This document shows positions 6,419 to 29,567 of a DNA stretch of 43,673 nucleotides, in pieces. Within the stretch, counting starts at the first letter, position 1, and each line of letters opens with the position of its first letter. The notes beneath the pieces were generated by a model. The model worked only from the letters and a program-made list of their open reading frames with translations. It did no database searches and was not told where the DNA came from. The translations under genes and the position numbers were made by a program. The DNA is from a virus (Duplodnaviria > Caudoviricetes), in the IMG/VR virus record IMGVR_UViG_3300020042_005083, positions 1-43,673 of that record; one strand, 5' to 3'.

Positions 6419-8686
6419 ATGCCACTTAAAAAACTTGTCTTCAAGCCGGGGGTAAACAGAGAAGCAACCTCTTATGCGAATGAGGGTGGCTGGTTCGCTG
6501 CGGACAAGATTCGATTCCGTTCGGGGCAAGCCGAGAAGATCGGCGGATGGGTGCGAGACACTGGCACTGTCGCCACCATTATTGCGGGAGTTCCGACGAC
6601 AGTTTCAACTCCACCCACAGGTGTTTTGTGGGGAATTGCCCGTGGTATGTGGAACTGGGTTACTCTGTCGGGGTACAACCTGCTCGGCATTGGGACAAAC
6701 CTTAAATACTACATTCAGAACGGTAATGGCGGTGAGTTCTATGATGTCACGCCCATCCGCGATACAAATACAGCAGTCGCAAATGCGTTTACTACCACAG
6801 TTGCATCGTCCCTCGTTCGTGTAAACGACCCCGCGCATGGTGCTGTAAGTGGCGACTTCGTCACGATCTCAAGCATCTCCCCGGTTGCTCCTGCAACGGT
6901 CAACGGCATCCCTGTCGCCACCCTAACAGGTGAATTTCAAATCACCTACCTAGACAACAATAGTTACTACATAACTGTAACTTCCCTCGCCGCATCTAGC
7001 GGGACATCTGCGGCCACTGCAACCTTGACGTATCAATTCAATACGGGTGGCAGCACGTTTACGGCAGGGGTGGGTTGGGGCGCAGGATTGTGGGGCGGCG
7101 TTGTGACTGGTGCGGTGTCGTCTACGCTAAGTGCAGCCGTTAGTAGTTCTGACACCGTAATTCCTTTGTTAAGTTCCGCATCGTTTAGCGCACCTACAGG
7201 GGCAGTGACTATTGATGGCGAAAACATTACCTATCTAGGCAATTCAGCAAATCAGTTGACTAGTTGCACTCGTGGGGCAAGCGGGTCAACCGCCGCCACT
7301 CACAGTTTAGGAGCGGTTGTACAACAGTCATCTACGTTTACGGGCTGGGGAATTGCCGCAGCAAGTTCAGCGGGGGCAGGATTACAGTTGAGACTTTGGA
7401 GTCAGTCTAACTTTGGCGAGAATTTAATCTTTAACCCCCGTGGTGGGCCGATGTGCTATTGGGATACCAATCCAACCCCCACTGTATTTGATCGCGGTGT
7501 AGAGATTAAAGCCAGCACCACAGTCGGCGGCGCACCAGTCGATGCATCGTGCCCATCGCTGGTTAACTTTATTATGGTGTCAGATGCATCACGATTTGTG
7601 ATTGCGTTTGGATGCAACGATCCTTCTGGCGTTTACGCCACCATAACGATTGACCCGATGCAGATTCGCTGGTCAGATCAAGAGAGTTACGCCACTTGGA
7701 TTCCAGCCATCACCAATCAGGCGGGTGACTATCGCTTGAGCCGGGGCTCTTTTATCATTACAGCGATCCAGACTCGTCAAGAAATCTTGATTTTTACTGA
7801 CTCAGCCATCTATTCCATGCAGTACCTTGGGGCTCCATATGTTTGGGGCTTTCAGATCATGGGAGACAACATTTCTATTTCTAGCCCCAATGCTGTTGTT
7901 ACTGTTAACAACGTAACTTATTGGATGGGTAAAGACAAATTTTATATGTACTCTGGTCGAGTGCAAACTTTAGCGTCCACCCTGAGAGAGTATGTGTTTA
8001 GTGATATTAACCTAGAACAAGGATTTCAAATTACTTCGGGCACGAACGAAGGCTATAACGAAATATGGTGGCATTACTGCTCGGCGGGCTCTAATGTCAT
8101 TGACCGCTATGTCATCTACAACCATCTAGATGAGGTCTGGTACTACGGTACATGGGATAATATCAATGGGCTGCCGCAGGGTAGAACCGCATGGCTAGAC
8201 AGCCCGCTTCGCGCATCTCCAATGGCGATGACTTATGGAATCGCAGGTAGTAATGCAAATGCCCTGCTGGTTTACCATGAGAACGGTACGGACGACAATG
8301 TGGTCACCCCTCCACTTGCCATCAGTTCGTATGTAACTTCTTCGGACTTTGACATTGATGATGGACACAACTATGGTTTTGTGTGGCGAGCCATCCCTGA
8401 CTTGACCTTTGACGGCTCATTTGTTAATGCGCCTATGTGTACTCTGAGCATTTATCCGCGCAACTTCCCCGGCTCTGCGTACAAGACGGCTGCAAGCCCC
8501 GACATTACCAGCGCACAGAACTATCAGACTGTCCGCACATATGAAGTACAGCAGTTCACCCCAGAGGTTTACACCCGAGTGCGTGGGCGGCAGTTGGCGT
8601 TTCAGATCAGTTCCGATACGCTCGGCGTACAGTGGCAGATGGGTAATATGCGTATTGATTTACGTGCAGATGGCAGGAAAGCATAA
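6419..8686 (+). CDS. Tail tube / nozzle (tail tubular protein B / stabilisation protein-like)
   Basis: 755 aa beta-rich; MPLKKLVFKPGVNRE start, IRWSDQE, C-terminal RVRGRQ...MRIDLRADG. Confidence 0.7.
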   Translation: MPLKKLVFKPGVNREATSYANEGGWFAADKIRFRSGQAEKIGGWVRDTGTVATIIAGVPTTVSTPPTGVLWGIARGMWNWVTLSGYNLLGIGTNLKYYIQNGNGGEFYDVTPIRDTNTAVANAFTTTVASSLVRVNDPAHGAVSGDFVTISSISPVAPATVNGIPVATLTGEFQITYLDNNSYYITVTSLAASSGTSAATATLTYQFNTGGSTFTAGVGWGAGLWGGVVTGAVSSTLSAAVSSSDTVIPLLSSASFSAPTGAVTIDGENITYLGNSANQLTSCTRGASGSTAATHSLGAVVQQSSTFTGWGIAAASSAGAGLQLRLWSQSNFGENLIFNPRGGPMCYWDTNPTPTVFDRGVEIKASTTVGGAPVDASCPSLVNFIMVSDASRFVIAFGCNDPSGVYATITIDPMQIRWSDQESYATWIPAITNQAGDYRLSRGSFIITAIQTRQEILIFTDSAIYSMQYLGAPYVWGFQIMGDNISISSPNAVVTVNNVTYWMGKDKFYMYSGRVQTLASTLREYVFSDINLEQGFQITSGTNEGYNEIWWHYCSAGSNVIDRYVIYNHLDEVWYYGTWDNINGLPQGRTAWLDSPLRASPMAMTYGIAGSNANALLVYHENGTDDNVVTPPLAISSYVTSSDFDIDDGHNYGFVWRAIPDLTFDGSFVNAPMCTLSIYPRNFPGSAYKTAASPDITSAQNYQTVRTYEVQQFTPEVYTRVRGRQLAFQISSDTLGVQWQMGNMRIDLRADGRKA

Positions 8687-9339
8687 TGGCAACCAGCCCA
8701 CTGATAAATCGGCTTATTCCGACTGTAGCCCCAAGGCTACCGTCTAGCCCACAGCCACCGGATAAACTGTATCTAGAGCAGTTAAACAATGTTCTTCGGT
8801 TGTACTTCAACCAGATCGATGGGAATGTAGCGGCTCTGATTGGTGGAGAGGGTGGCGCGTACATCAACAATCCGTATGGAGCGTTTTCAAGTTTTGTAGA
8901 TCAAACAGCCGTTGTCAATACGGCAACTCAACTACTGTTTGAGGTGGAAGACTTTTCAAACGGGGTGACTGCTCCGTCTTCTCAAATCACAGTTGATCGC
9001 TCCGGTATCTACAACTTGCAGTTCAGTGTGCAAGCGCAAAACCTGCAAAACAGTCCGCAAGATATGTTTATATGGCTGAAGCAAAACGGAACCGATATTG
9101 TGGGCTCTACAGGTCTGATTGGTTTACCAGCCCGTAAAGGCCCTAGCGACCCAGCGCATGACATCAAGGGTTGGAACTACTTCATGTCCATGAACGCCAA
9201 TGACTTCATAGAAATCTATTGGTCAATCGAAGACGTTCTAGTTACGATCCAGACCTACGCTGCTTCTGGTTCACCAACCAAGCCCTCCACCGCTTCTGTG
9301 GTGGCAACGATGTCATTTGTCTCCGCGCTACCTGCGTGA
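8686..9339 (+). CDS. Virion structural protein
   Basis: LNNVLRLYFNQID N-terminus followed by a beta-sandwich (GIYNLQFSVQ); coupled to the preceding gene. Confidence 0.6.
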   Translation: MATSPLINRLIPTVAPRLPSSPQPPDKLYLEQLNNVLRLYFNQIDGNVAALIGGEGGAYINNPYGAFSSFVDQTAVVNTATQLLFEVEDFSNGVTAPSSQITVDRSGIYNLQFSVQAQNLQNSPQDMFIWLKQNGTDIVGSTGLIGLPARKGPSDPAHDIKGWNYFMSMNANDFIEIYWSIEDVLVTIQTYAASGSPTKPSTASVVATMSFVSALPA

Positions 9340-9345
9340 TAACAT
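9317..9345 (+). promoter_or_regulatory. Possible sigma70-type promoter for the ejection-protein genes
   Basis: TTGTCT-17 nt-TAACAT with TG just upstream of the -10. Confidence 0.3.
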
Positions 9346-9375
9346 GATGTTTAACCATACGCTAAGAGCGGGGCA

Positions 9376-10572
9376 ATGATGGCTGTCACACAAGCAAATG
9401 ATTTTCTTGCCAGAGCGGTAGCAAATAATCCCTCACTCCAAGCCGCTATTGCAGCGGGGCAAGCCAAGAACAAGGCCAAGCAAGAACGCACCGCTGGCCT
9501 TGCTTTGTTGTCTCAGCAACTTGGTGGGCAAGCCTCTAGTTATGGGTTTAGTTGGAAAGGCAACAGATCAGCCGACTTCCACCAAGGTAAGATGGCAAAA
9601 ATCTTGTATGACAAGGGTGTTCGTAGCCTGTCAGACCTTGGGTTTTCTAAAGACGGCAAGCAACTGATCAACAAAAATACTGGTCAGGTCATTCCCCATT
9701 ACAAAAACAGGAAGATGGGCAAGGATGGCCGCGCCCAGATTGGATGGGAGTCTGGTGGCAAAGGCTTAACCAACTATTACGTACAAGCGGATGCCCAAGG
9801 CAATCCGGTGTTTACTCCCAAGTGGAAGAGCAATGCTCCCGGTGGGATTGGTGGAGCAATCCTTAAATATGCCGCCCCTGTCATTGGGGCAGTTAATCCA
9901 CTTGCTGGCGCAGCAGTAGGTGCGGCATTGGGGTTGGCGCAAGGTCAGAAGTTTGGGGATATTGCCAAGGGCGCAGCGTTAAACTATGGGTTGAGTAGTC
10001 TTGGGAGACTGGGTAGCAACTTTGCCACCGCAAACTTGCCAATGATCGGGAATGCTGGCATTACAAACGCCATAGCGGATTCGTTGGGTGGGGCCGCAGC
10101 GGGTGGCATTAGGGGTCTGGCAACTGGGCAAAACCCATTTCAATCCGCTTTGACTGGTGCAGCCACCTCCGCTGTTGGTTCTGGTATTGGTCAGTTAGTC
10201 GGTCAGATTCCTAGTACAGGTAACGCCACTCTCGATAAGTTTCTTCAAGCCGGGGCGCAGCGCGGTTTGGGCAGCGCAATTGGCCCTGCGTTTGCTGGAC
10301 TCTTTGGCGGTTCTGGCGGCATCAATACTGGCATGGCAAACCAGACTGGTTTCCCACAAAATAGTCCCCAGAATCAAGGCGGCAATCAGGGATTTGGCTC
10401 CATCCCGACAATGGGCTCTGGCAATATGGCGAATTTCTTGCAGTTGGTTAACTCCATACCGCAACCCACTGCCCCTGCTTTTGCTGGCCCCCAGTTTAAT
10501 GTTGCACAGGCATTTGAGCCAACCGCACAGAAGTCGCAAAACTTCATGCCGTCAACCAACAATTTTGCATAA
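9376..10572 (+). CDS. Putative internal virion / DNA ejection protein
   Basis: 398 aa, long Gly/Ala-rich hydrophobic stretch, position after the tail genes. Confidence 0.55.
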   Translation: MMAVTQANDFLARAVANNPSLQAAIAAGQAKNKAKQERTAGLALLSQQLGGQASSYGFSWKGNRSADFHQGKMAKILYDKGVRSLSDLGFSKDGKQLINKNTGQVIPHYKNRKMGKDGRAQIGWESGGKGLTNYYVQADAQGNPVFTPKWKSNAPGGIGGAILKYAAPVIGAVNPLAGAAVGAALGLAQGQKFGDIAKGAALNYGLSSLGRLGSNFATANLPMIGNAGITNAIADSLGGAAAGGIRGLATGQNPFQSALTGAATSAVGSGIGQLVGQIPSTGNATLDKFLQAGAQRGLGSAIGPAFAGLFGGSGGINTGMANQTGFPQNSPQNQGGNQGFGSIPTMGSGNMANFLQLVNSIPQPTAPAFAGPQFNVAQAFEPTAQKSQNFMPSTNNFA

Positions 10573-10582
10573 GAGGTAAATC

Positions 10583-12172
10583 ATGAGTTATCTTGACGAC
10601 CTTATGGGCAGTGGTGCTCCATCATTTGATTTCAACTTGGATTTAAGTAATATTGGAAGTGGGACGCCGAAGTACAGTTTCAGCGACCCTAAGAATTTGA
10701 TTCCCTATGCTACGGATGAACAACTGTATGATCCTGCCAATCAGGGGTTCTATGGCATACCTTATGCAACAGATGAGGAATTGTCTGATAAAGCCAATCA
10801 GGGCTTTTACGGTCGCGCCTCGCAGCCAGCACCCCCTCCCGAAGAGGAGTGGTATACCAAACTCTTGAAGTCTCTGAAGGGTGGTCTTGCAAAGAAAGCA
10901 TCCTCTCCTGAAGGCATTGCGGAACTGGCGCAGATTTTTATGGCGGCTAGAGGGATGTTTGACAAAGACTTCATTACTCCCAAGAAGGATGGATTGCAAA
11001 CTCCAATTAGCACGACGATGACGGCAAGTCGGGGGAAGCCAAAACAACAACCATATATTCCATATTCCAGTCAGCCGACGATGGGGCAAGATTACGGCGT
11101 TTCTGATGTCACTTATGCAGCCAAAGGCGGGATCATGGGCCTACAGCAAAAAGATGGGCGGTACTTGCGAGGCCCAACTGACGGGATGGCTGATGAGATT
11201 GAAACGGACATTGATGGCAAGCATCCAGCCAGACTGAGCCACGGTGAATTTGTGTGGCCCGCAGATGTGGTTGCACACTTTGGGAATGGCAACTCTGAAG
11301 CAGGGGCAGAGGTGCTCAAAAAAATGATGGAGCGTGTTCGTAGGGCGCGGACAGGTAACCCCAAGCAAGGCAAACAAATCGACCCAGAGAAGTTTATGCC
11401 GAAGGTCATGAAGGCCTCAAGCGGTGGCATTGCAGCCTACGCAGGTGGTGGCCCAGTGGCGTTTGCAGAAGGCGGTAATGTTGTTCAAGAACAAACTTTA
11501 AGCAATTGGGCTGCTCCCGCGCTCAGTGACATTGCTTCGAGAAGCCTTGCATTGTCTAAACAAGTCACCCCTGTTTATCAAGGCCCATTGACCGCAGGCA
11601 CTTCTCCGTTGCAGGGACAAGCGTTTAGCAATCTCGGCAAGTTGACTGGTTCAATGAACGACTTTGGCACCGTTCAAAGTTACATGAACCCGTACATCAA
11701 CGATGTGATGAAGCAGCAGTCGGATGAGGCGAGGCGTCAGGCTGCCATTACTCAGACAGGGATCAACTCACAAGCCACCCAGCAAAACGCTTTTGGTGGC
11801 AGTCGGTCAGCCATCATGGGGGCAGAGAATAATCGTAACCTTGGAACCACGCTGGCAAACATCCAGTCTTCTGGTTTAAACAGGGCATACGACAACGCCA
11901 TGAATCAGCAAGTGCAAGCAGGCCGGTACGGTCTTGATGTTTACGGCGCTCAGTTGGGTGCGGGCGGTACTCAGCGAGCCAATGAACAACAGGGCATTGA
12001 TGCTCGAAGGGCTCAGTTTGAAGCGCAAGTGGCTGATCCAATGAAGCGTTTGCAGTTTGCCAAAGACATCTTCTCGGGCCTTCCAATTCAGACCAACAAC
12101 ACCAACGTCAACTATTCAAGTCAGGATAACCTGATCAATCAGTTGAATCAGATGCTTCCATATCTTAGGTAA
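10583..12172 (+). CDS. Putative internal virion / DNA pilot protein
   Basis: GAGG RBS; LRGPTDGMAD...RLSHGEFV domain; Q/A-rich C-terminus with YMNPY and AFGGSR motifs. Confidence 0.6.
   Translation: MSYLDDLMGSGAPSFDFNLDLSNIGSGTPKYSFSDPKNLIPYATDEQLYDPANQGFYGIPYATDEELSDKANQGFYGRASQPAPPPEEEWYTKLLKSLKGGLAKKASSPEGIAELAQIFMAARGMFDKDFITPKKDGLQTPISTTMTASRGKPKQQPYIPYSSQPTMGQDYGVSDVTYAAKGGIMGLQQKDGRYLRGPTDGMADEIETDIDGKHPARLSHGEFVWPADVVAHFGNGNSEAGAEVLKKMMERVRRARTGNPKQGKQIDPEKFMPKVMKASSGGIAAYAGGGPVAFAEGGNVVQEQTLSNWAAPALSDIASRSLALSKQVTPVYQGPLTAGTSPLQGQAFSNLGKLTGSMNDFGTVQSYMNPYINDVMKQQSDEARRQAAITQTGINSQATQQNAFGGSRSAIMGAENNRNLGTTLANIQSSGLNRAYDNAMNQQVQAGRYGLDVYGAQLGAGGTQRANEQQGIDARRAQFEAQVADPMKRLQFAKDIFSGLPIQTNNTNVNYSSQDNLINQLNQMLPYLR
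10700..10813 (+). repeat. Two tandem 57-bp coding repeats
   Basis: IPYATDEQLYDPANQGFYG / IPYATDEELSDKANQGFYG. Confidence 0.9.
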
Positions 12173-12174
12173 CC

Positions 12175-13827
12175 ATGAGAACGGAAATGAATAACTCCTA
12201 TCCTTCCGCACTCCCCGCTGCAACTAAGTTGTTTTTGGATGCTCTGCAAGCCGGGGGCAAACTCACTTCCCCCACGGGGCCGACAGTCCTTGGTCAAGCA
12301 GGCGCTCAGATGGGGGTGAATCCCCAACAAGGGGCTCCAGCAGAGCCAGAACAACAAGGCATCGCTGCCATTCTGGATCAGGCGCAACAGGCTGGCCCCT
12401 CGGTTGCCAATAATCAGGCAATGATGCAGCAGCAGCAGTTAGTGGATCAAGCAGCCAATCAAGCCGCTCCAGCGGCTGCTCAGATGTTGCAACAACAACC
12501 TCAACAGCCACAAGGCATGGCTCATGGTGGTCTTGCTGCCATTCCTTCTCACATTCAAGAGTTTAAGGAAGGTGGGGTGATTGGGTATGCTGGCCCTGAG
12601 GGAAGTTATGTTGATCCATATTCTTTATATCTATCGTCTTTGAGGCCGAGTCAGGACTCCTCGACAAATATGGCAGAGCGTCCAGCCCCCGAAGAAGCAA
12701 CTTCAGAAATCGGTGATTTTTTTAGGGGGATTACGGAACTTGCTGGTCGGGCCAATAAGTTGAGGCAGCAACGAGATGAGGCAACCCCCTCTATATTTAC
12801 CTCCCTCACACCAACAGAACGAGCGCAAAAGGCGGCTACTCTGAAAGGTGTTGAAGCGCAAATAGCGTCACTATATGACCCCGCAGAAAGTGCTGCGCGG
12901 GCAATCATGGCTCCTGTCGATAGCAAGCGCCCAGATCAGGCTACCGCGCAAGCGGCCCCGCCCCCTGTGAAACCTGCGCCAAAAACCGCTGCACCGTCCG
13001 CCCCTGCTGCCACTTCATCTAAGACGAGTGTGTCTACACGGGAGAAGATGGGTGACCCGACCGCGCCGGAGCCATCAGGGATCGCAGCGGGCACCCCGTC
13101 CGTTCAAAACTTTGATGATTCGGAAGCGCAAAGGCTGTATAAACTGCGTCAGGCGCAGATTGCCAACAAGCCTGACTTTCAGTCAATGGGGTTGGCTGAT
13201 ATTGCTGCCATGCAGAAGCGCGACGAAGACAGCGCATCGTTCCGTAGATATGCGGCCATCGCTGGCGCTCGCAAACCCGGAATCAACGCTGGTTCATCCA
13301 TGATGGCTGCCGCAGGGCAATTTGCACAGGGTCAGGACGCACTGGCAAATGCAGCAGATGCTGCCAAAACAGCACTTGCTAAGGCCACATACGCAGAGTC
13401 CATTGGTGATACTGATGCGATGTTGAGGTTCCAAAAGGAATTCAACGACAACAAAGTCAAGATGGTCGAGATACGTCAGAGGATGGATTTAGGCATTTAC
13501 GAGCAGCAGCAAGCCAATAAGCGCAACGAAGCAGTCAACGCTATCAGGGCGCAAATGGCTGCAATGGGTAGCGGGGGAGGCAAAAATCTCAAGAACCCAG
13601 TGGATGTTATGAATATTGTTGAAGACAATATGGAAAAATACATGAAGGGTTGGACTGAATCAAGAGAAGGCAGAATGGCGAAAGGCCCAGAACGTGAGGC
13701 CGAGTACAGAAGGCGGAAGTTGGATATGATTTTAGAGATGAAGGCAATGGGCGCAGTTGTTCCTGAAGGCATTGAAAAATTGTTGGGTGGCGGTCAAACG
13801 ACGAGAACTGTTAAACTCAATCCTTAA
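12175..13827 (+). CDS. Putative internal virion / ejection protein
   Basis: 550 aa, Q/A/P-rich with helical regions; immediately precedes the giant protein. Confidence 0.55.
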   Translation: MRTEMNNSYPSALPAATKLFLDALQAGGKLTSPTGPTVLGQAGAQMGVNPQQGAPAEPEQQGIAAILDQAQQAGPSVANNQAMMQQQQLVDQAANQAAPAAAQMLQQQPQQPQGMAHGGLAAIPSHIQEFKEGGVIGYAGPEGSYVDPYSLYLSSLRPSQDSSTNMAERPAPEEATSEIGDFFRGITELAGRANKLRQQRDEATPSIFTSLTPTERAQKAATLKGVEAQIASLYDPAESAARAIMAPVDSKRPDQATAQAAPPPVKPAPKTAAPSAPAATSSKTSVSTREKMGDPTAPEPSGIAAGTPSVQNFDDSEAQRLYKLRQAQIANKPDFQSMGLADIAAMQKRDEDSASFRRYAAIAGARKPGINAGSSMMAAAGQFAQGQDALANAADAAKTALAKATYAESIGDTDAMLRFQKEFNDNKVKMVEIRQRMDLGIYEQQQANKRNEAVNAIRAQMAAMGSGGGKNLKNPVDVMNIVEDNMEKYMKGWTESREGRMAKGPEREAEYRRRKLDMILEMKAMGAVVPEGIEKLLGGGQTTRTVKLNP

Positions 13828-13847: not shown

Positions 13848-16800
13848 ATGTACAATGTCGAACTCCCAGACGGTACGCTAGTACAAGTTCCTGATAATGT
13901 TCCAGAAGATGAGGCTAGGAGAAGGATTCGGAAGCAGTTCCCTCAGTTTGCGGAACCTGCCGACAAGCAAAGCATTCTTCGCCAAGTAGCGGACGTTCCT
14001 CTCGGCATAGCAAGGGGCGCAACGCAAGGTGCCCGAATGATTTCGGACATCTTCGGCGCAGGATCGAAGACCTCACAAAACATTGCCGGGGTCGAAAACT
14101 ACATTGCTGACCTGATGTCGGCTCAGTCCAAGAAGGATCAGCAAGAAATTGCTCGAATCCAGAAAGAGGCTGAAGACAAGGGCATTTGGGATCAAGTCAA
14201 GGCGGGCGCCCGCGCATTTGCCATCGCGCCAATTGATACGCTGTCTTCTGCCGCTGGTACAGCCCTGCCTGTCATCGCGGCAGGTTTGGGTGCTGCCACT
14301 CTGGGTGCTCCTGCTGCTGTGGGCACAGGCATTGCCGCGCTTATGGGCGCTGGTATGGGCGCTGGAACCATTAAGGGTTCTATTTACGAGGCAACTAAAC
14401 AGGCCCTGATAGAAGAGGGTGCCACCCCTCAAGTTGCAGAACAAAAGGCGCTACAAGCGCAAGAATACGGCGGTAAAAACTTAGACCAGATTCTGCTGGG
14501 CACCGTTATCGGCGGCGTGGCGGGTGCTGGCCCTCTGGAGCGAGGCGCCGCCCGCATCTTGTCTGGCCGTATTTTAAACAAGGCAGCCAAAGAATCTGGC
14601 GAGGCAGCAACCAAGAGCACCTTGCGGAACCGTGTTGAGTCCGGTCTGCTAGAAGCCGCCCCGGAAGCCTTGCAAGCAGGTCAGGAGCAGGTTGCTCAAA
14701 ACATTGCCTTGCAACGAGAGGGCATGAATGTCCCCACCTTCCGGGGTGCAGTGGGTGCTGCCACTCTAGAAGGTCTGGCCGGAGCAGGATTGGGCGCAGC
14801 CGTTGGACGTAGGGCTACTCCTCCTGAATTGATGGAAGGGCAGATGGCAGGTGAGACTGCCCGCCAATCCGCAGAGCGTTTACAGCAGGAAATCAATGAT
14901 CTGCAAGGGCTAAAGGCTATTCAAGCCCAGCAAGATGCAGAGGCCCTGCAAACTGGCATCGGCATTGCCACAACGGCCAAGATGCCGCAGCAGGGTGAAA
15001 CTCCGCTGCGTCCACCTCCGCGCCCTTCTGCCATGCAGAGTGATGATTACTCATCGTTACTGGCTCCCAATTTACCTCCTGCCCCAGAGGTAGTAGGCCC
15101 AACAGGCATTGCTTCTGCTGTTTCAACACCTGAGCGTGGTGTTGCTGCTCCATCTTCAATCAGTGGTCGCGCTGCTGTTGATTCAATGATGGTGCCCACG
15201 GACAGGGCTTTGCCAGCCCCAGTTCCTACTGGATATGCTCCCGCTATGGGAGGAATCCAATCTGTCTTGCCACAACGCGCAGATCGTCCCGCCGCAGACA
15301 GGCTGCCTGATTTCAATCAGGTGATGGCTCAGGAGGCTGATCCATTTGTTGCCACGGTGGGCATAGGTGGAGCACTGGGTGGCATCGAGCCAAGTCTGCC
15401 ATCCCGTCCTACAGTGGATGGCACTCCCACGTTTAATCAGTTGATGGCGCAAGACAAAGCCATCGACCGGGGCATTGCTTCTGCTGTTCAAACGGCTATC
15501 CGCAAGAACACGGCGTCTGAGGCTCAAGGCCCAGCAACCCCAATACTTAAACAGCCTGAGCCGACCTTTGTCTCAGGGCTCGACACGATTGTAAAAGGCG
15601 GCAAGGGAAGCCCATCACAGGAAACGGCACAAGGCCCCGCGACCCCAATCATTCCCGTGGTTCCTCCCGCCGCCCCAGAGGCTGGCGTACAAGGCATCAT
15701 CAAGGGTGGCAAAGGACAAGCAGCAGGACAGCAAAACACTGCCCCGGCTACCCCCGTTATGCCCCAAAAGCCCCCGGAATCGGGAGTTTCGGGCGTTATT
15801 AAGGCAGCAGCCGGACAACCATCTACGGTTCAAGGCCCATTGGGCCAGCCCCTGTTGCCTCAGATACAAGAAGCAGGGCTTGCATCTGCCACTAAGGGTG
15901 GTAGGGGAACTCCGACTAAAACTACCAGCCCAAGTAACGTAAACAATCTCAATGTACCGGAGGCGACGGATGAGGCAATTCAGCAGGAACAAGCGCCCGA
16001 AGGAACTGCGACGGATATCGGTACAGCAGGTGGAACAAGCGTTCCTGTGGTTGGTGGACAAGGAGTTGAATCTGCCCCCGCCGGGACTCGAAGACCTAAA
16101 CGGGGAGCAGTGGGAAGTGATCAGCCAGATGCTGGCGGTACTGCTGGCGGAAAGGCAAAGCAATCCCCTGCACTAAAGAAATCACTGGCTGCAACTGAAA
16201 CAGAGCCAGAGCCCGAGATTGAAGATGAGGCAGTCGATAAACAGATCGCCCTAAAGACCAAGCAACTGCAAGCCATCATGCTCAGAATTATGAGCGGCAT
16301 GGGGTTGCGTGATGTTGGTCTGAAGTTGGTCGCCAACATGGATGCGGAAGGCGAGTACGCCAACCAACTGATCACGCTTGCGTTAAACGTCGATAGCCCG
16401 GTTCGTGTGCTGCGGCATGAGTCCATACACGCCATGAAGGCTATGGGGCTCTTCAGCCCCCAGCAGTGGGAGACTCTCAGAAAAGAAGCAAGCACCAAGT
16501 GGATTAAACAGTTCCTTGGTGAAGGTGAGGGCAGCCGCTTTGAGCAGTACCAGAAACTGTTTAAAGATCAAGGCTTGTCTGATGCCGATGCCAATGAGGC
16601 GATGATTGAAGAAGCCATTGCGGATGCCTTTGGTGAATTTGATCTGCGTGGCGCTCCATCTGGCTTGATGTCTGCCATCCTTAAACGGATGCAGAATATG
16701 TTTGCAGCCATCAAGTCTGCATTCGGGGGCACTGAGACTGCGGAGCAAATTCTTCAGCGGGCTGAGAAGGGCAAGTTGCAGGGTAAACAACCTAGCGCAC

Positions 16801-19800
16801 CTAAAGAAGCCGAACAACCCGAAGAACCGGAAGAACCTAAAGCAAGTCTGCGCCGTGCAGCCGTTCCAGACGAAACTGAGATTTCCACTCAGAACCCACA
16901 GGGCGTTAACCGCCGATACGACCCTATTGAGCAGATGCTGTCTATCGACCAGAAAGCGGTCGAAGAGGCAATGGAACTCAATCCCAAACTGTACGATTCA
17001 ATCACAGATGCCATCTTGCGTTATGGCTTTATCCCGCCAGACACCAAGCGCGAAGATGCCATTTCGGTGTTTAAGAAGAACATCGTAAACAATCTGCTCT
17101 TCTTGCATGATGCCATCCCCAAAGACATCGCTAATCGCAGCAAACTTTGGTACGACGGGGCGCACGTCATTGCCAAAGAAATGGGCAAGCAGTACGGCAT
17201 GAAGATGGAGCAGGTGGCTGGCATCTTTGCTGCCATGTCTCCACAGAAGGATTGGTTCCAGAACGTATCAATGGGTGAACGCGCCATTGACATCCTGATT
17301 AACCAAGGAGATGCCACTTGGGACGACAACATGTTGAAGTATGCGGAGAGTTACATCCGCGAACCCAAGGATCGCAAAGAGCGGGAAAAGCGTCAAATCT
17401 TCTTTGACAAAAACATTCGCCAAACCAGCGAAAATCAAACGGCTCTCAAAGACATGGACATCGAAAACGCTGCTGCGTTTATCCGTGCCTTTGACGAAGC
17501 CTACAACTCGCGTCAATATCGCATCGTTACGCCTGAAGGTGGGTTTGCTGGGCTGGTCAACAAGAAAGATGGCGACCCTGCCATCATGACATGGTCAACG
17601 TATGGCCCTATCGAAAAAGCCGTCAGCATTTTCAGAGACCCTAGTCGCAAAAATATCAGCGAACAGTTGGGTGAAGAGCACAAGATTCGCTCCTTCTACA
17701 ACAACATCGCCGCCCCCAACGCCGACATTGACCATGTGACGATTGACACCCATGCGGTAGCCGCTGGTCTGTTTGAGGCTTTGGCTGGTAGCGACACGCC
17801 TGTAGCCGAAAACTTTGGCACAACGGGCGGGACAAATTTGCTGGGGGTTGGCGGCACTTACGGCATCATTGCAGATGCATATCGTGAGGCAGCCAAGGCG
17901 CGAGGTGTTCAAGCCCGTGAGATGCAGTCCATTACTTGGGAGGCCATTCGCGGCTTGTTTACGGAAGAACTCAAGAGCGGCATCAAGCCCAAGGTTCGTG
18001 CCGAGTGGGAAAAGTACAAGGCTGGTGAACAATCGTTTAACGAAGCGCGGGATGCTATTGTTGAGATTGCCAGCAAGAATCGAGATGAAGACTGGCGAGA
18101 CCCAGACTGGATTGACTCAGGCCCCGGCCAGACTGTGGCCGATGGTGGGGCAAGTTACGACAAGGACTTTGTCCCAGAGGGTGGCGTTCGATTGCGTGAA
18201 GAAAGTGTGCTGCGCGAGAAGTTAACGTTTAACTTGTCTTCCGTCACCAACTCAATCCCCGGCCTTAAAGATTTGTACCAAAAGGCCATGTCTGGAGATC
18301 AGGCGGCGTATAGTACCTTGCAAAAGGCAGCAGAAAGTTCACTTAGATATCTGCTTAGTGGAACGTCGGCACGAATCACTGTTGACTACGCCAAAGGCGT
18401 ATATCTGTCTGACCGTGAGCCTTCTATTGCAGCAAAAGTTGCCTTTAGTGAAGAGGATCGCCCAGCAGTTCTGGCGGCTCTTGAACGCTTTGCCAGCAAC
18501 TATAACCAGTATGCCGTTCACGTTAGACAGGGCACAGCGTACCCATTGGGTACTGAGTTTGACGACGGTTCGTATGCAACTGCCGTGTTTACCATTGACC
18601 TTCAAAAGAACTTAACCAATGAGGAAATTGGTCAGGTTTTGACTGAGACCAATCTAGAAGCGTTTACTGTTGTTCCAACCAAAACGCCAAAAGGCATCGT
18701 TAATCAATTGGTTGCCTATTGGTGCAAACTTAATAGCAAACCCCAAGAGGAGCAGGAAGATGATTTCAAACAGTTCAAAGCCAACCTCACGAAAGCCGCC
18801 AAGTTGGTTGGAGTCGCAGGTAAGAAGCCTAGAAAAACAATTGAACGCCTCTTCGTCTACGCAGACGATGACGAACGATCAACCCACACCTACGGGCGAA
18901 TTCGTGGCGACGTTTCACCCAAGCAAGGCGCGGATACAGAAACCCCAAGAATAATTGCTGATTACATTCGGGGTGGCGCGGGCACGGTTGTACCGCCCAA
19001 GAAGTTAAACAAGTTCCAAGTTCTGAGTCAAAAACTGCTTGCTTCTGTGCAAGAGGCCTTGCCTGTCAATGACTTGAAAAAGCCACTTGTCCGAAAGGCT
19101 TACAACGCTGCCAATGTTGAACTAGCAAAACAATTTGCTGCCCTGCCTGTCAAGGTTGAGGTTGTTGACCTTACTGACAAGCCCGGAACCTTTTACTACG
19201 ATGGCACCTACAAATCTGGTACGGCAGCCAAGGGAGAGATTGTTGCCAAGGATGAAGCAGAAGCCCGCGAGCAACTTAAACAGCAAGCCATTGATGTAGA
19301 TAAGATCAGGCAGCGCCCAGAACCTTATGCCAATAGCGCAGAGATGCGTAAGGATGTCAGCAACAACAATGTGCTGAAAATCCTCAAGACCCAAGCAGGT
19401 TCATTTGGCCCTGAAGGTGTTCCGATGTCGGATCATCCTTTGCTGGAGATGTCGGAGTTCAAAGACATCAACAAAGTACCGTTGCTGTACAACGATATGC
19501 TGCGGGCTGTGCATGACTACTACGCACATGGAGTGACCCCAGCAGAGTTTGGCCCTGTCGGTGAAGCCACAGCATGGTTAAACCATATGGCAACCACCAT
19601 GAGTCCTCTGGCCCGATGGGTCATCACGGCAGAGACTCGTTTGCAAAATGCTTGGCAAAACTTCCGTCCGGGCGCGGAAAACATTCCGTTGGCTGACCGT
19701 CCGTATGCCCTGCAAAAGGCGGCATTGCCCCCAGTGCAATTTGCCCTAACGGGCAAGGCAGACATTGATGCTCCTATGCTGGAGTTCATCAACACCCTGA

Positions 19801-22800
19801 CACCTAAACAGCAACTGGGCAGCCTTTCAGAGAAAAGCCCGCTGGTCAAGAAGATTGGCCCTGCTACCACGGCAAAGTTTAGTATCCGTGCTCCAAACAC
19901 CAAAGAGTTTAAACAGTGGTTTGAGGACAGCAAGGTTGTTGATGAAAACGGTGATCCGCTTGTTGTGTATCACGGAACAATGGCGGACATTACGTCCTTT
20001 AAACCTTCTAAAGAAGGTGTTCTTGGGGCTGGCGTTTATTTAACTCCTGATCCAAAGTTTGCAGAAAACTATTCAACAGAGAATGGAAACATTCTTCCTG
20101 TCTTTGCTTCCCTTAAAAACCCTCTGATCATTCGTTTGGAAGGAAGGCACCAGCCAGCATTTGTTGGGTTGATGCAGTTGGGGATGAGTGAGGCGGCAGC
20201 AGAAAAAGCAGTTGATCATGGCTTTGAAGAGTACGGCAATATGCGACAAGAGTTGCGTAGCCGTGCGCTCAAGCAAGGCTATGACGGCATCATGCTGTAT
20301 CAAGAAGGTTCTTTGCGGGAGTTGGTTGTCTTTGATCCGACGGACATCAAGTCCGCTATTGGTAATCAAGGCACATACAATCGATTTAGCCCTGACATCC
20401 GCAAGAGCATCCGCGCTCCGCAGACAGAAGAATTTAAACAGTGGTTTGGTAATAGCAAGATCGTTGGCAAAGATGGTCAGCCTCTGGTTATGTACCACGG
20501 CACAGCCAGAGACATCAATGTCTTCACGCCTAAACAAGCAAACGCAATCTTCCTGACGGGAGATCGGGAGTTTGCTGAAGGCTTTGCTAGCATGAGCCTT
20601 GACTGGGTTGCCACACACTATAAGGAAATGCTGACACCAAACCAACTGGTAGAGGCTCGCGCTTTTGCTGAACGTCTTGGGCGTCAGACATACAGCCGCA
20701 ATCCAAAGTTGGTTGAGCAGATCACAAAAGACTTGCGACAAGGTAAAGATACCGAAGATGCCACTGATTTAATTGCTACGGCAGTTAAACAGATGTTGGA
20801 CAAGACTAAACGAGTGATGGAGGTCTATGTCCGCGCCGAGAAGCCGTTTGATTATGAAAACGCAGATCACATCAAACAAGTAGCAAACTTGTTACCTGCC
20901 ACGATCAGAGCAGAGGTTGCTTTCTCAGATCAACCCGGCATCACTTACACAAAACTAGATGCCATTGAGAAATTAAAGACTGGTGAGTGGGACATTGTCG
21001 AAAGCAAATCTGTCCAAAAGGCTATTCGCGAACTGGGCTTTGATGCGTTCTACACCCAAGAAGGTGGCGAAAAGAACATTGCTGTTTACAACAGCAATCA
21101 AATCAAGTCCGCCACCAACAACGAAGGCACCTATGACATCAACAATCCTGACATCAGGAAGAGTCTTCGTTCGGGCGCATCAAAGTTTAAACAATCTGAA
21201 ATGAACCAATTTAAGGAGCCGGGGTTTAAGTCCAAAACTAAACTTATTGAACTACCAATCAATGAGTTTTTGAACCTTGCAGACAATGAGTTTGATCAAG
21301 CGAAATTGGACAATGCCAGACGTGTGCTTCAAGAGGGTGGGCAATTCAACAACCTGCCTATGCTAGGATTTGAAACAAGGTCTGGGGCGATTGCTCCTAG
21401 AGTTATAGAGCACGAAGGTCGTCACCGTGCTCGGGCTTTGCTGGAACTTGGGTACACAAGTATGCCCGTTATATTTAAGGGCGACATCCGGTGGAGTGAA
21501 CAAGAGACTCGGGGGCGATTTGATTACCGAGAAGAATGGCCGACCAAGTTGCAAGCGCAATCGGAAGCCATTGATCCCAACTACTTGGCCCCCTTCCCTG
21601 TTTCTAGGGGGGAGTCCAATCAACCATACACGGGAGATGTGCCCCCGGCAAAAGCCAGCCTCCGATCCTCGCTCCCCGCTGCCCTTGTTCAGCGTGTTGA
21701 GCAGACCACGGTTGCCCGTGAAGACAAAGGCTTCATCAGCCGAATCCTAAAAGCCATCAGCCCCGGAGATCACACATCCATAAGGGCAGAACTGCTAAAC
21801 AGGTACAACCAACTTAGCGTCATCGACAAGATGCGTATCAAGAAGATGGGTGGTGCTGCGGCTATGGCAGATATCTCTGCTGAGTCGGCTGCCTTGTTAT
21901 CTGACCTTCGTGCAGGTATTGTTGCCTCTGCCCTTGGTGTCCATGACAAGGTGGGCGGCGCTCCTGTTTACGTCCAGAGTTTTTACGTAGTGCGTAACGG
22001 GCAAATCCTCCCGCGCCGATACAAAACTAAGGCGCTGGCACAGGCTGCGGCTGGAACTACTGGTGAGGTACGTTCTGGTGGACACACAGCCGTTGGTAAC
22101 TTCAATGGTTCTGTGAAGGGGCCACTGGCAATCTTTGCTCCATTGGCTGCTGTAAACGATCCGATGATCTATCAACTTTACCAATTCTGGGCGGCAGCCA
22201 AGCGCGGTAAACGGTTGACCAAGGAAGGCAGAGAAGAACTGCTGACCCCAGCAGATCAGGCTCACGCCCAGTTCTTGGAGAAGAAGTACCCCATGTTTGT
22301 ACAAGTCCAAAAGGACTTCATCAAGTACAACAACAAACTCGTTGACTACATGGTGGACACAGGGGTGCTGTCTCCAGAGCGCGGCAAGATTTACACGGAA
22401 CACGCCGACTACCTGCCGTTCTATCGTCAGATCGAAGGCTTGCCCACTGCTGGGCCAAAAATCTTTGCATCTATCTCTGGAGTTAAACCTCCCAAGGCAT
22501 TGAAGGGCAGCGATGCCCGTCTGGATGACTTCCTTGAAACGATAGTGCGTAACACTCAAGCCGCAGTAGAGGCGGGGGTCAAGAACGTGGCAGCCCAACG
22601 ATCAGTAGAGGCTGCTAAAGACGTTGGTCTTGCCGTGAAGATACCGCAAGGCGATGGGATGCCAACGACCGTTGTTGTGCATGAGAACGGCGTACCAACG
22701 TACTACGCCTGTGGCGATGTTCTATTCGTAAACGCCATGAAGAGTCTGGGAATGTCAGACATTCCGTTCCTGAGCCTCTTGTCCATGCCAGCCAATCTGC

Positions 22801-24320
22801 TCCGTGCAGCGGTGACCAAAGAACCAACCTTCATGCTGGCAAATATGCTGCGTGACTCGTTGTCTTCCTACGTTACCTCTGGCGTAAGCATGACCCCGGT
22901 AATCGACACCGCCAAGAACTTTGCCATGTCAATGGCAGGTAAGTCTCCTGAGTATGACGCTCTGCGTAAGGCGGGCATCATAGGTGGCTATGAGTTTGCA
23001 CAAGGCGTTGAAACCAGCGGTCGTAAGTTGGGAGAAAAACTCAAGGCGGCTAACGTCAAGTCCACTGGTCTTAAACGGGTGGGTGAGATTGCTGCCTCCC
23101 CAGTCACCGGGATTTGGCAATTCCTTGAAAAGGGCAGTGAAGCCTCAGATGCGGCCACCCGTATCGAGATTTACAAGCGCACTCTGGCTGAAACCGGAAA
23201 TGAGACCGAAGCACTGTTTAAGTCTCTTGAGGTAATGAACTTCAACCGTAAGGGACGTGCTGCTTCCGTAAGAGTTCTTACGGCGGTCGTACCGTTCTTA
23301 AACGCACGGATGCAGGGTCTGGACATCTTGTATCGTGCAGCGATACAGCCAAGTATGCCGGGGCAGTCACCCACCGATAGGCAGAAGGAACTTCAGCACA
23401 AGTTCCTTGTGCGCGGAGCCACGATGGCTGCCTTGTCTTGTTTGTACTGGGCGCTAACCAGCGATGATGATGAGTACAAGAAGCAGGAGCAGGATACCAA
23501 AGACAACTATTGGTTGTTCCCTTCTATGGGGATCAAGATTCCAATCCCATTTGAAATTGGTGTGCTGTTTAAGGTGATCCCAGAACGCATCATGGCTTTG
23601 TCCTTTGGCGATGATTCGTTTAAGGACTTCCGTCAATCAATGACGAATCAAGTGATCTCCACCCTGCACTTCAACCCGATCCCACAAGCGGTCATTCCTA
23701 TTGTGGAGAACATCACCAATCACTCGTTCTTCACGGGTCGAGACATTGTGAGTGAGGGCGTGGCAGACTTGGAGGCTGGATATCAAACCTCCGCTTCCAC
23801 ATCCAGCCTGATGGCAGACTTCGGCAGGGCTACTGGTCTCTCTCCAATCAAACTGGAGGCCGCGATCCAAGGCTACACGGGTCAGATGGGTATGTACTTG
23901 GTGTCTGCCTTGGATGCCATATATGAAGCCAACAGCACCATCGAGCGCCCAGCCAAACGCTTCGAGCAACTGCCGCTGATTAAACGGTTTGCTATCGATC
24001 CAGAAGCGCGGGGTTCGGTGACTGCCTTCTTTGAACTGAAGGACAAGGTAGATGCAGCGGTCAAGACAATCAATGTGCTGGAGCGTGGTGATCCAGAGAT
24101 TTACGACAAGTACATTGAGACCAATGAAAACCTGCTGGCGTCCAAAGAGTACATCAATGTGCTGGCGTCTGACCTAAAGGACTTGGCAAAGATGAAGGTG
24201 ATGATCCGCGCATCAGATGATTCTGCGGAGGTCAAAAAGGATGCGTTGCTGGAGATTCAGCAACTAGAGAACGAACTGACCGCCAACATCAAAGACCTTC
24301 GGAAAGAGTTCAACCCCTAG
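13848..24320 (+). CDS. Giant polyvalent virion protein (zincin metallopeptidase, uncharacterised enzyme-like domains, 2x ART-PolyVal-like ADP-ribosyltransferase, ParB-like domain, LPD38-like C-terminus)
   Basis: 3490-aa ORF; HESIH at aa 857-861 plus EEAIADAF; FKQWF..SK.V...G.PLV.YHGT twice; EGRHRARA; KDNYWLF...IPIPFEIGVLFKVIPER. Confidence 0.85.
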   Translation: MYNVELPDGTLVQVPDNVPEDEARRRIRKQFPQFAEPADKQSILRQVADVPLGIARGATQGARMISDIFGAGSKTSQNIAGVENYIADLMSAQSKKDQQEIARIQKEAEDKGIWDQVKAGARAFAIAPIDTLSSAAGTALPVIAAGLGAATLGAPAAVGTGIAALMGAGMGAGTIKGSIYEATKQALIEEGATPQVAEQKALQAQEYGGKNLDQILLGTVIGGVAGAGPLERGAARILSGRILNKAAKESGEAATKSTLRNRVESGLLEAAPEALQAGQEQVAQNIALQREGMNVPTFRGAVGAATLEGLAGAGLGAAVGRRATPPELMEGQMAGETARQSAERLQQEINDLQGLKAIQAQQDAEALQTGIGIATTAKMPQQGETPLRPPPRPSAMQSDDYSSLLAPNLPPAPEVVGPTGIASAVSTPERGVAAPSSISGRAAVDSMMVPTDRALPAPVPTGYAPAMGGIQSVLPQRADRPAADRLPDFNQVMAQEADPFVATVGIGGALGGIEPSLPSRPTVDGTPTFNQLMAQDKAIDRGIASAVQTAIRKNTASEAQGPATPILKQPEPTFVSGLDTIVKGGKGSPSQETAQGPATPIIPVVPPAAPEAGVQGIIKGGKGQAAGQQNTAPATPVMPQKPPESGVSGVIKAAAGQPSTVQGPLGQPLLPQIQEAGLASATKGGRGTPTKTTSPSNVNNLNVPEATDEAIQQEQAPEGTATDIGTAGGTSVPVVGGQGVESAPAGTRRPKRGAVGSDQPDAGGTAGGKAKQSPALKKSLAATETEPEPEIEDEAVDKQIALKTKQLQAIMLRIMSGMGLRDVGLKLVANMDAEGEYANQLITLALNVDSPVRVLRHESIHAMKAMGLFSPQQWETLRKEASTKWIKQFLGEGEGSRFEQYQKLFKDQGLSDADANEAMIEEAIADAFGEFDLRGAPSGLMSAILKRMQNMFAAIKSAFGGTETAEQILQRAEKGKLQGKQPSAPKEAEQPEEPEEPKASLRRAAVPDETEISTQNPQGVNRRYDPIEQMLSIDQKAVEEAMELNPKLYDSITDAILRYGFIPPDTKREDAISVFKKNIVNNLLFLHDAIPKDIANRSKLWYDGAHVIAKEMGKQYGMKMEQVAGIFAAMSPQKDWFQNVSMGERAIDILINQGDATWDDNMLKYAESYIREPKDRKEREKRQIFFDKNIRQTSENQTALKDMDIENAAAFIRAFDEAYNSRQYRIVTPEGGFAGLVNKKDGDPAIMTWSTYGPIEKAVSIFRDPSRKNISEQLGEEHKIRSFYNNIAAPNADIDHVTIDTHAVAAGLFEALAGSDTPVAENFGTTGGTNLLGVGGTYGIIADAYREAAKARGVQAREMQSITWEAIRGLFTEELKSGIKPKVRAEWEKYKAGEQSFNEARDAIVEIASKNRDEDWRDPDWIDSGPGQTVADGGASYDKDFVPEGGVRLREESVLREKLTFNLSSVTNSIPGLKDLYQKAMSGDQAAYSTLQKAAESSLRYLLSGTSARITVDYAKGVYLSDREPSIAAKVAFSEEDRPAVLAALERFASNYNQYAVHVRQGTAYPLGTEFDDGSYATAVFTIDLQKNLTNEEIGQVLTETNLEAFTVVPTKTPKGIVNQLVAYWCKLNSKPQEEQEDDFKQFKANLTKAAKLVGVAGKKPRKTIERLFVYADDDERSTHTYGRIRGDVSPKQGADTETPRIIADYIRGGAGTVVPPKKLNKFQVLSQKLLASVQEALPVNDLKKPLVRKAYNAANVELAKQFAALPVKVEVVDLTDKPGTFYYDGTYKSGTAAKGEIVAKDEAEAREQLKQQAIDVDKIRQRPEPYANSAEMRKDVSNNNVLKILKTQAGSFGPEGVPMSDHPLLEMSEFKDINKVPLLYNDMLRAVHDYYAHGVTPAEFGPVGEATAWLNHMATTMSPLARWVITAETRLQNAWQNFRPGAENIPLADRPYALQKAALPPVQFALTGKADIDAPMLEFINTLTPKQQLGSLSEKSPLVKKIGPATTAKFSIRAPNTKEFKQWFEDSKVVDENGDPLVVYHGTMADITSFKPSKEGVLGAGVYLTPDPKFAENYSTENGNILPVFASLKNPLIIRLEGRHQPAFVGLMQLGMSEAAAEKAVDHGFEEYGNMRQELRSRALKQGYDGIMLYQEGSLRELVVFDPTDIKSAIGNQGTYNRFSPDIRKSIRAPQTEEFKQWFGNSKIVGKDGQPLVMYHGTARDINVFTPKQANAIFLTGDREFAEGFASMSLDWVATHYKEMLTPNQLVEARAFAERLGRQTYSRNPKLVEQITKDLRQGKDTEDATDLIATAVKQMLDKTKRVMEVYVRAEKPFDYENADHIKQVANLLPATIRAEVAFSDQPGITYTKLDAIEKLKTGEWDIVESKSVQKAIRELGFDAFYTQEGGEKNIAVYNSNQIKSATNNEGTYDINNPDIRKSLRSGASKFKQSEMNQFKEPGFKSKTKLIELPINEFLNLADNEFDQAKLDNARRVLQEGGQFNNLPMLGFETRSGAIAPRVIEHEGRHRARALLELGYTSMPVIFKGDIRWSEQETRGRFDYREEWPTKLQAQSEAIDPNYLAPFPVSRGESNQPYTGDVPPAKASLRSSLPAALVQRVEQTTVAREDKGFISRILKAISPGDHTSIRAELLNRYNQLSVIDKMRIKKMGGAAAMADISAESAALLSDLRAGIVASALGVHDKVGGAPVYVQSFYVVRNGQILPRRYKTKALAQAAAGTTGEVRSGGHTAVGNFNGSVKGPLAIFAPLAAVNDPMIYQLYQFWAAAKRGKRLTKEGREELLTPADQAHAQFLEKKYPMFVQVQKDFIKYNNKLVDYMVDTGVLSPERGKIYTEHADYLPFYRQIEGLPTAGPKIFASISGVKPPKALKGSDARLDDFLETIVRNTQAAVEAGVKNVAAQRSVEAAKDVGLAVKIPQGDGMPTTVVVHENGVPTYYACGDVLFVNAMKSLGMSDIPFLSLLSMPANLLRAAVTKEPTFMLANMLRDSLSSYVTSGVSMTPVIDTAKNFAMSMAGKSPEYDALRKAGIIGGYEFAQGVETSGRKLGEKLKAANVKSTGLKRVGEIAASPVTGIWQFLEKGSEASDAATRIEIYKRTLAETGNETEALFKSLEVMNFNRKGRAASVRVLTAVVPFLNARMQGLDILYRAAIQPSMPGQSPTDRQKELQHKFLVRGATMAALSCLYWALTSDDDEYKKQEQDTKDNYWLFPSMGIKIPIPFEIGVLFKVIPERIMALSFGDDSFKDFRQSMTNQVISTLHFNPIPQAVIPIVENITNHSFFTGRDIVSEGVADLEAGYQTSASTSSLMADFGRATGLSPIKLEAAIQGYTGQMGMYLVSALDAIYEANSTIERPAKRFEQLPLIKRFAIDPEARGSVTAFFELKDKVDAAVKTINVLERGDPEIYDKYIETNENLLASKEYINVLASDLKDLAKMKVMIRASDDSAEVKKDALLEIQQLENELTANIKDLRKEFNP
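15970..16176 (+). CDS. Candidate nested gene (68 aa) in the +1 frame of the giant gene
   Basis: GGAGG at 15959-15963, 6 nt before the ATG; protein looks ordered and amphipathic (PPPGLEDLNGEQWEVISQMLAVLLAER) while the host frame is a low-complexity linker. Confidence 0.55.
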   Translation: MRQFSRNKRPKELRRISVQQVEQAFLWLVDKELNLPPPGLEDLNGEQWEVISQMLAVLLAERQSNPLH

Positions 24321-29264: not shown

Positions 29265-29567
29265 TTAGAAAGGCACGTCTTCATCGTCAGTAGATGCTGC
29301 GCGAGGCTTCTCGGCATCAGGCAACCAGCGATTTACCATGATCGACAGATACGTCTGTCCAGCATTGGCCCCGGTCTTGTACTGCTTCTTCCAGCCAGAC
29401 AATTTATAGATCAACAGGCTGCCATCATTCTTGAGGGCAGTCAAATCCTTGGGGTCGATGGCAATCTCGCCCCAGTAGTCAGGCATACCCTGACCCTTAG
29501 ATGGATTAGCCTTCAGCGTTCCGTAGTCCGCCTTGAATTCAAACTTCTTTTCGTAATCAGCCATCAC
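29265..29567 (-). CDS. Single-stranded DNA-binding protein-like
   Basis: PDYWG...LSGWKK...YLSI OB-like core with acidic DDEDVPF tail; adjacent to the annealase. Confidence 0.7.
   Translation of the reverse strand: MMADYEKKFEFKADYGTLKANPSKGQGMPDYWGEIAIDPKDLTALKNDGSLLIYKLSGWKKQYKTGANAGQTYLSIMVNRWLPDAEKPRAASTDDEDVPF

Follow-up and report, generated by a model that had tools for sequence, protein, structure and literature searches.

The window analyzed here, 43,673 nt of the IMG/VR virus record IMGVR_UViG_3300020042_005083, is a partial phage genome with the head genes outside the window. The final gene of its virion cassette is an open reading frame (ORF) of 3490 aa (13848..24320, + strand) with five copies of a short motif, [KR]xS[LI]R, termed here junction tags, which lie between an N-terminal carrier with a HExxH motif, four payloads, and a C-terminal carrier (Table 1). 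The original prediction described this protein as a candidate polyprotein of injected effectors that would cut itself at the motif; all five copies were confirmed at their amino acid and nucleotide positions, with codons unlike between copies. ART-PolyVal, LPD38, and DUF7178 (PF18760, PF18857, and PF23802) are all matched by Pfam in this one chain, which thus combines several activities as phage-type polyvalent proteins do. The protein also shares with them a location among late virion genes, downstream of co-oriented genes for an adaptor, tail-fibre-like proteins, an endolysin, and a structural protein, and a variable architecture (71 architectures in 120 proteins). The polyvalent virion protein context originally proposed is upheld by these domains and neighbours, and the ORF likely encodes an ejection protein that, by analogy with phi24B gp47, would be packaged and delivered with the DNA.

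Both ADP-ribosyltransferase (ART) domains and the LPD38 C-terminus were recovered as predicted, with the E-values given in Table 1, whereas other parts of the chain had to be redescribed. Block 1, previously treated as one unit of about 1010 aa, is bounded by tags but comprises at least two domains that occur apart in other proteins, with no tag between them; in reference clusters, block 1a corresponds to DUF7178 only and block 1b to unnamed clusters with scores under 0.9. The unnamed domain (19296-19760, +; aa 1817-1971) contains an HDxxxH motif common to other payload types and is possibly a second metal-binding enzyme. Payload 4, predicted as a ParB-like GRHR module, has no match among Pfam or PDB chains; its assignment depends on an indirect link, a 93% hhalign probability to a module type whose source proteins match PF02195 (ParB family). 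Neither payload 4 nor the C-terminal carrier gave anything in sequence and profile searches of solved chains, and no family match was found for the N-terminal carrier region, whose hydrophobic stretch could possibly contact a membrane. Within the Pro/Gly linker (15300-15780, +; aa 486-640), FNQ[VL]M occurs twice (three times in the related locus L007) and QGPATP-like units three times.

Table 1 Features of the giant ORF and related genes in the window.
Feature	Position (nt)	Strand	Details
Virion cassette	204..13827	+	SU10-type adaptor, tail-fibre-like genes, endolysin, structural protein, three unnamed genes
N-terminal carrier region	13848..14867	+	Gly/Ala-rich; sole strongly hydrophobic stretch at aa 139-170 (hydropathy)
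Pro/Gly-rich low-complexity linker	14868..16217	+	aa 341-790; short internal repeats
HExxH...EE domain	16230..16787	+	HESIH, aa 857-861, nt 16416-16430; EEAIADAF, aa 921-928
Junction tag 1, KASLR	16839..16853	+	aa 998; pLDDT about 47-48 in model
Payload block 1	16854..19874	+	~1010 aa; DUF7178, aa ~1077-1451; unnamed domain, aa ~1817-1971; no internal tag
Junction tag 2, KFSIR	19875..19889	+	aa 2010
Payload 2 (ART 1), ART-PolyVal ADP-ribosyltransferase domain	19890..20399	+	PF18760, E 3.7e-29
Junction tag 3, RKSIR	20400..20414	+	aa 2185
Payload 3 (ART 2), ART-PolyVal domain with insert	20415..21155	+	PF18760, E 4.5e-19
Junction tag 4, RKSLR	21156..21170	+	aa 2437
Payload 4, HEGRH module, likely ParB/Srx-like	21171..21650	+	no Pfam match
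Junction tag 5, KASLR	21651..21665	+	aa 2602
Conserved C-terminal carrier	21666..24320	+	~885 aa; LPD38, aa 3207-3378, nt 23466-23981, PF18857, E 1.2e-32
Sak single-strand annealing protein	29564..30352	-	PF06378, E 1.9e-46

Junction tags in homologues and at DNA breakpoints

In the window protein alone, the significance of the motif is weak. The exact pattern occurs 0.14 times on average in shuffles of the giant protein (maximum 2 in 3000); since it was picked after seeing the data, the fair test is the best pattern per shuffle, and by that standard the reduced form of the motif, with 6 copies and p 1e-4, only matches the median of 200 shuffles. A lone protein is therefore not enough to prove the motif, and its enrichment is settled by the homologues.

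A search with the C-terminal region returned 1196 hits, the best 120 of which (query included) were analyzed; these proteins are kin, so that their tag copies are not independent events. The strict tag is present 377 times against 15.7 expected, with at least one copy in every protein, and the 257 inner segments between tags represent 50 types. Masking the tag with random letters did not disperse the alignment boundaries in the variable zone: the share lying within 5 aa of it was 33% for starts (n = 20,902) and 25% for ends (n = 20,475), against 3% for random points. The motif thus lies at domain junctions and is enriched at the borders of variable domains in homologues, as had been proposed; except inside block 1, the arrangement matches the repeated border motif expected of a self-processing polyprotein. 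Two further tests did not presuppose the motif. In the 187 distinct family flanks that follow the C-terminal ART signature, the five positions are R (89%) or K (6%), Y (63%) or K (16%), S (86%), L (85%), and R (68%), and the last junction, anchored separately in 75 of the 120 proteins, reads [KR]x[SNA][LIV][RK] in 74 of these 75. At the first junction the fifth residue is less strict. The segments bounded by tags cover a wide payload range in homologues (P0003, P0005, P0037, P0038, and others), including PF01028, PF00145, PF02195, PF18763, and PF17338.

The tag is confined to the giant protein. Locus searches with single proteins gave 2, 1, and 0 loci. Across a set of 80 loci, we counted 191 tags per 221,533 aa in 79 giant ORFs and 6 per 171,653 aa in the other plus-strand ORFs, 2 of these 6 being in a split giant; the tag is at chance level in these other proteins, and none was found in the eight other ORFs of the virion cassette of the window. 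Almost all tags (358/366) are located downstream of the HExxH domain. In locus L149 (about 10400 onward), a giant gene that terminates shortly past the HExxH domain precedes a separate 436-aa ORF with two tags, which reflects either a split gene or an assembly frameshift.

Exchange at the tags can be followed in the DNA. In locus L110, payload 4 shows 98% nucleotide identity to the window over a stretch that opens 6 nt into tag 4 and closes with the final base of tag 5; it sits at a different position in its gene, and the homology of the C-terminal carrier begins 3 nt ahead of tag 5. We also compared eight public contig runs with the window, leaving out two possible source runs and not taking low depth over payloads as absence. 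Contig pieces spanning exactly 21165-21665 were present in runs X3, X4, X6, X7, and X9, and in three of these runs (X3, X4, and X9) that contig picks up the carrier again at 21648, with 861 other letters in between. In X6, position 21166 is joined to 21672 with 10 letters between, a net 495 nt corresponding to the 165 codons of payload 4, and in X7, 19889 is joined to 20415, so that the 525 nt (175 codons) of ART 1 are skipped in frame, a join that the alike starts of both ARTs could favour. Several other joints with short sides lie off the tags and may derive from other organisms. Together with the 71 architectures, the breakpoints at tags bear out the earlier view that payload cassettes are swapped between conserved N- and C-terminal carriers, and Sak would be a candidate agent of this exchange.

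The codons of the tag suggest two layers of conservation. Synonymous codons are numerous at the Lys/Arg, Leu/Ile, and Arg positions, in agreement with the conservation at protein level originally claimed, but Ser is encoded by AGY in 149 of 191 tags (32% background) and by TCN in the other 42. This bias adds a DNA layer that had been discounted, indicating common ancestry of the tag DNA or its use as a site of crossover; selection acts on the tag as protein, and ancestry or crossover use of the DNA likely comes second.

Identity of the tag and the HExxH domain

The ART-PolyVal payload was followed into unrelated carriers among named phages, 80 viral loci, and 150 cluster representatives. There the same payload bears different flanking tags (SLR, FSR, LxQ, or ESR) according to its carrier. 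Sorted by type of HExxH domain, the tag position, or slot, contains [KR]xSLR in the window family, xESR in its sister pair, LxQ with the STFLHE-type, RYQR with the DTAIHE-type, and R[FY]x with several HExxxH types; HExxxH forms are also found in distant LPD38 proteins of cultured phages. Two cultured phages possess four-fold tags of their own and are usable as test systems, namely Planktothrix phage Pag-Yong1 (L003), with the junction tag ESAR, and Bacteroides phage BF1-TP2 (L016), with RFR.

For a test on trees, we retained the 136 of 249 proteins in which a single core HExxH domain was present and the flank could be read, setting aside co-occurring HExxH types as payloads with a pattern list of our own, and sorted the flanks into five classes. 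Flank class changes 37 times on the HExxH tree, compared with 61 on the ART tree and 67.6 when shuffled (minimum 60); for the xxQ class the corresponding values are 3, 19, and 21.4. Among close ART pairs, flank similarity is 9.9 for the 28 pairs with like HExxH domains and 2.4 for the 59 pairs with unlike ones. The upstream ART flank follows as well (15/22 versus 7/101, with patterns set after viewing the data). The tag therefore tracks the HExxH lineage of the carrier and not the lineage of the payload, which points to the cis domain as its reader. Moreover, the LxQ-type tag spans phages of Caulobacter, Octadecabacter, and Limnohabitans, and the R[FY]x/FSR-type spans phages of Pseudomonas, Bacillus, Pseudoalteromonas, and Bacteroides; such crossing of host groups argues against a host protease.

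The HExxH...EE pattern is intact in 118 of the 120 homologues, which were picked by their C-terminus, and the other two begin inside or past the domain; none of the family members found had a dead HExxH. Both His, the Glu at the catalytic position, and the downstream EE are conserved, as in gluzincins with their HExxH motif and Glu helix, and we predict a gluzincin-type metallopeptidase, a label used because of this pattern and of the description of such domains in PMC5512222. The family profile aligns motif to motif with two of three other HExxH clades of carriers (93% and 96%), but not with the third (1%). In an AlphaFold model built with 69 sequences (pLDDT 81), the HExxH and EE helices are confident and the tag is unstructured. 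Ahead of the HExxH helix, the alignments show an alternating hydrophobic pattern and a conserved Gly, in a region that is helical in the model. A single-sequence fold of the HExxH region (pLDDT 48) was unusable. No Pfam name was obtained for any of 13 HExxH domains taken from other carriers, that of the window matches no Pfam MPTase model, and NCBIfam gives nothing above cut-off. The VIA fold comparison retrieved unrelated chains (best Z 5.8) and no solved protease, and a viral structure library only phage proteins of like kind, absences that exclude nothing.

The slot was also read in proteins that lack the HExxH domain. Of these 66 proteins, 22 have [IL]xE or I[TSNL]K[AS] there, versus 9 of 169 with HExxH, and both ITE and LTE are proven T4 prohead-protease sites, Alt being cut at ITE-6 and LTE-619 (PMC5694885). 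The Lys form, I[TSNL]K[AS], would be a maturation site too. No clean [IL]xE control was found among named large phages, with one N-terminal site in pT24 and none after the ARTs of Tunturi_5 and Dfl-JY45. Proteins P0188-P0208 and others contain up to 10-12 tandem ART-PolyVal copies with a clade-typical tag after each, and where such proteins have no HExxH, the slot is often occupied by [IL]xE or ITK[AS].

Stand-alone ARTs bear on the bond that might be cut. Two of them end two residues past the Ile of the slot, and seven other terminal ARTs extend further; the two ends mildly favour a cut between x and S, a bond that we prefer by a small margin of confidence. Thermolysin-like enzymes prefer a hydrophobic P1' residue, which would favour cutting between S and L. 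Such a bond between S and L/I is the less likely candidate.

Proposed processing in cis and its alternatives

We give a probability of about 0.7 to the reading that the giant is a polyvalent ejection protein cut at its tags by its own zinc-protease-like domain. Under this reading, a conserved N-terminal HExxH carrier and an LPD38 C-terminal carrier would enclose swappable payloads bounded by tags. The chain would be packaged whole in the head and ejected with the DNA, and could be held by its N-terminal part through the hydrophobic residues 139-170, followed by the 450-aa Pro/Gly linker. The HExxH domain would then recognise and cut the downstream tags, most likely after host entry, a timing suggested because the virion RNA polymerase (vRNAP) of phage N4 is packaged whole. 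The predicted pieces are carriers of 103 and 97 kDa and payloads of 112, 19.5, 28.5, and 19 kDa, and the freed payloads would be the DUF7178 block, two ADP-ribosyltransferases, and the ParB-like module. Since every payload would need the tag of its carrier, selection should leave only those exchanges whose ends lie at tags, and a payload that enters a new lineage would take on the tag of that lineage. We lean slightly towards a broader statement, namely that podophage ejection proteins are self-cleaving polyproteins with a lineage-specific code of protease and tag (SLR, FSR/RFR, LxQ, YQR, ESR), the tag doubling as a crossover point for plug-and-play swaps of anti-host enzymes within one phage population.

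Several observations weigh against cutting in cis. The HExxH tree is also the tree of the carrier lineage, so any lineage-specific reader yields the same signal; both trees were made with FastTree on short domains, and the ART tree may be poorly resolved. Tags are loose or mixed in many clades (37 changes for 5 classes; e.g. P0190 and P0206), a family-type HExxH domain (E 2.9e-23) occurs without a strict tag in Ruegeria phage 45A6, and the strict form is missing in 14 of 67 further homologues, nine of which have RYSLS and one RYSLD after the ART, with the flank unreadable in four. The AlphaFold model has helices in place of the expected zincin sheet, the HExxH domain drew no match from solved chains by sequence or by profile, and no protease was among the Foldseek matches in PDB (best E 0.46), an absence that excludes nothing. 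The HESIH zincin originally proposed is thus backed by its sequence pattern but not by the modelled fold. In HExxH-less proteins, prohead proteases are assumed, and some of these proteins may be fragments. The N4 vRNAP has a HExxH domain and is packaged unprocessed (PMC5512222), and the N4 structure paper reports no cleavage in its accessible text (PMC13434306). Cutting at the tags is something we infer for every family member. Co-variation with the HExxH lineage nevertheless strengthens the original proposal of a cleavage site for the cis zincin, of which the cleavage itself, its timing, and the bond are what we infer.

Among the alternatives, most weight goes to an uncleaved recognition signal for a lineage-specific virion part, although we find it improbable. 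The chain would stay whole, with the tag read by the LPD38 carrier, by the portal/tail channel, or by the HExxH domain working as a clamp that binds without cutting, and the reader would pace packaging, unfolding, or ejection of each module. Co-variation with carrier lineage suits any cis reader, and the lack of a zincin fold in the model and the intact packaging of the HExxH-containing N4 vRNAP both fit a chain that is never cut; such a signal does not agree with the conservation of the His residues, catalytic-position Glu, and EE in 118 of 120 unbiased homologues, nor with the T4-type protease motif in the same slot of some HExxH-less proteins. We assign a slightly lower probability to cutting by another enzyme, either a distinct maturation protease of the phage or a protease of the host; the HExxH domain would then have peptidoglycan or proteins of the host as its target, as has been suggested for phi24B gp47. 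Peptidoglycan degradation by the metallopeptidase is indeed put forward in the phi24B preprint (10.64898/2026.04.10.717836), and head genes outside the window leave room for a maturation protease, but the tag is at chance in the ORFs flanking the 79 giants, absent in the eight cassette ORFs (prohead-protease sites, in contrast, are shared by many head proteins), almost always downstream of the HExxH domain, and its type crosses host phyla along with the HExxH clade.

The DNA evidence could also be read as the translated footprint of a short crossover patch (e.g. via Sak) with no protein role, as the breakpoints on tags, the AGY bias, and the presence of a sak gene would allow. We consider this quite unlikely, because 42 of 191 Ser codons are TCN, the other positions are codon-diverse, the five copies in the window differ in DNA, and 15 nt of degenerate sequence offer little homology; serving as a crossover patch may instead be a secondary role of the tag. 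Least credible, and very unlikely in our view, is a structural cap belonging to each payload fold: the tag directly follows the conserved C-terminal ART signature, but it bounds 50 segment types, the same ART bears other tags in other carriers, two stand-alone ARTs end at the slot, and the flanks are depleted in order-promoting residues (21-22% versus 31%).

Two observations elsewhere in the window concern other genes. A pair of AAA+ ATPase and VWA genes (37839-41783, -; CobS/CobT-like by PHROGs) coincides with a GC rise from ~0.50 to 0.62-0.64, which suggests a different origin. At 1603-5415 (+), a tail-fibre-like gene with a small gene behind it (phrog_4492 with phrog_6034) occurs twice, both small genes belonging to one family, and this arrangement looks like a tandem duplication.

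Implications and comparison with known systems

Self-cutting of polyvalent proteins has been a prediction since 2017 without a named site, and the window supplies five exact candidate sites together with predicted fragment sizes. What is new here is likely the exact sites and a protease-matched tag code for processing that had already been predicted. The tags set precise borders for about 50 payload types, most of them without known family, and account for a gene with a hypervariable middle and shared ends. The payloads they bound are candidate early anti-host or anti-defence enzymes, and, if the reading is true, reading the tags would delimit thousands of unknown injected effectors from sequence.

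The closest known systems are the phage-type polyvalent proteins defined by Iyer et al. 2017 (PMC5512222), who predict processing by the MPTase into functional units. The window protein resembles them in being a giant late-gene protein with ART-PolyVal, LPD38, a ParB-like module, and a HExxH domain; it differs in that no cleavage motif is named in the accessible text of that paper, whereas here the tag is defined and tied to breakpoints and to the HExxH lineage. In the accessible parts of PMC9503650, PMC13434306, PMC9024508, and the phi14:2 and phi24B preprints, delivery and hypotheses are described but no such site, and we found no paper naming such a junction tag in the full-text literature, mostly excluding subscription papers. 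The phi24B protein gp47 (10.64898/2026.04.10.717836), compared by description only, is a 2811-aa protein with LPD38 and a metallopeptidase that is found in virions and proposed as an ejection protein, but its peptidase is proposed for peptidoglycan, and its accessible description reports no processing or tag. Giant ejected proteins with a HExxH or zincin-like domain are also known in N4 (vRNAP gp50; PMC13434306) and among the cargo proteins of crAss-like phages (10.1101/2020.03.07.982082), for which cleavage of fused forms has been hypothesised. Unlike in the window protein, their payload is an RNA polymerase, the N4 protein is packaged whole, and no repeated tag is described in the accessible text.

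The proteases T4 gp21 and SPN3US gp245 (PMC5694885) provide a precedent for motif-directed cutting of ejected head proteins and for lineage drift in specificity. They are separate enzymes that act on many head proteins during maturation, whereas the window tag is found in one protein with the candidate protease in the same chain; with no Glu and at chance level in neighbouring ORFs (the head genes being outside the window), this tag does not look like a T4-type prohead-protease substrate. If cutting is real, the giant would also resemble another class of system. RNA-virus polyproteins consist of one chain with one embedded protease and a repeated junction motif, and the window protein would have the same three elements. 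No homology is implied by this likeness, since the setting is a DNA phage, the candidate protease is a metallopeptidase, and the payloads are exchanged between genomes.

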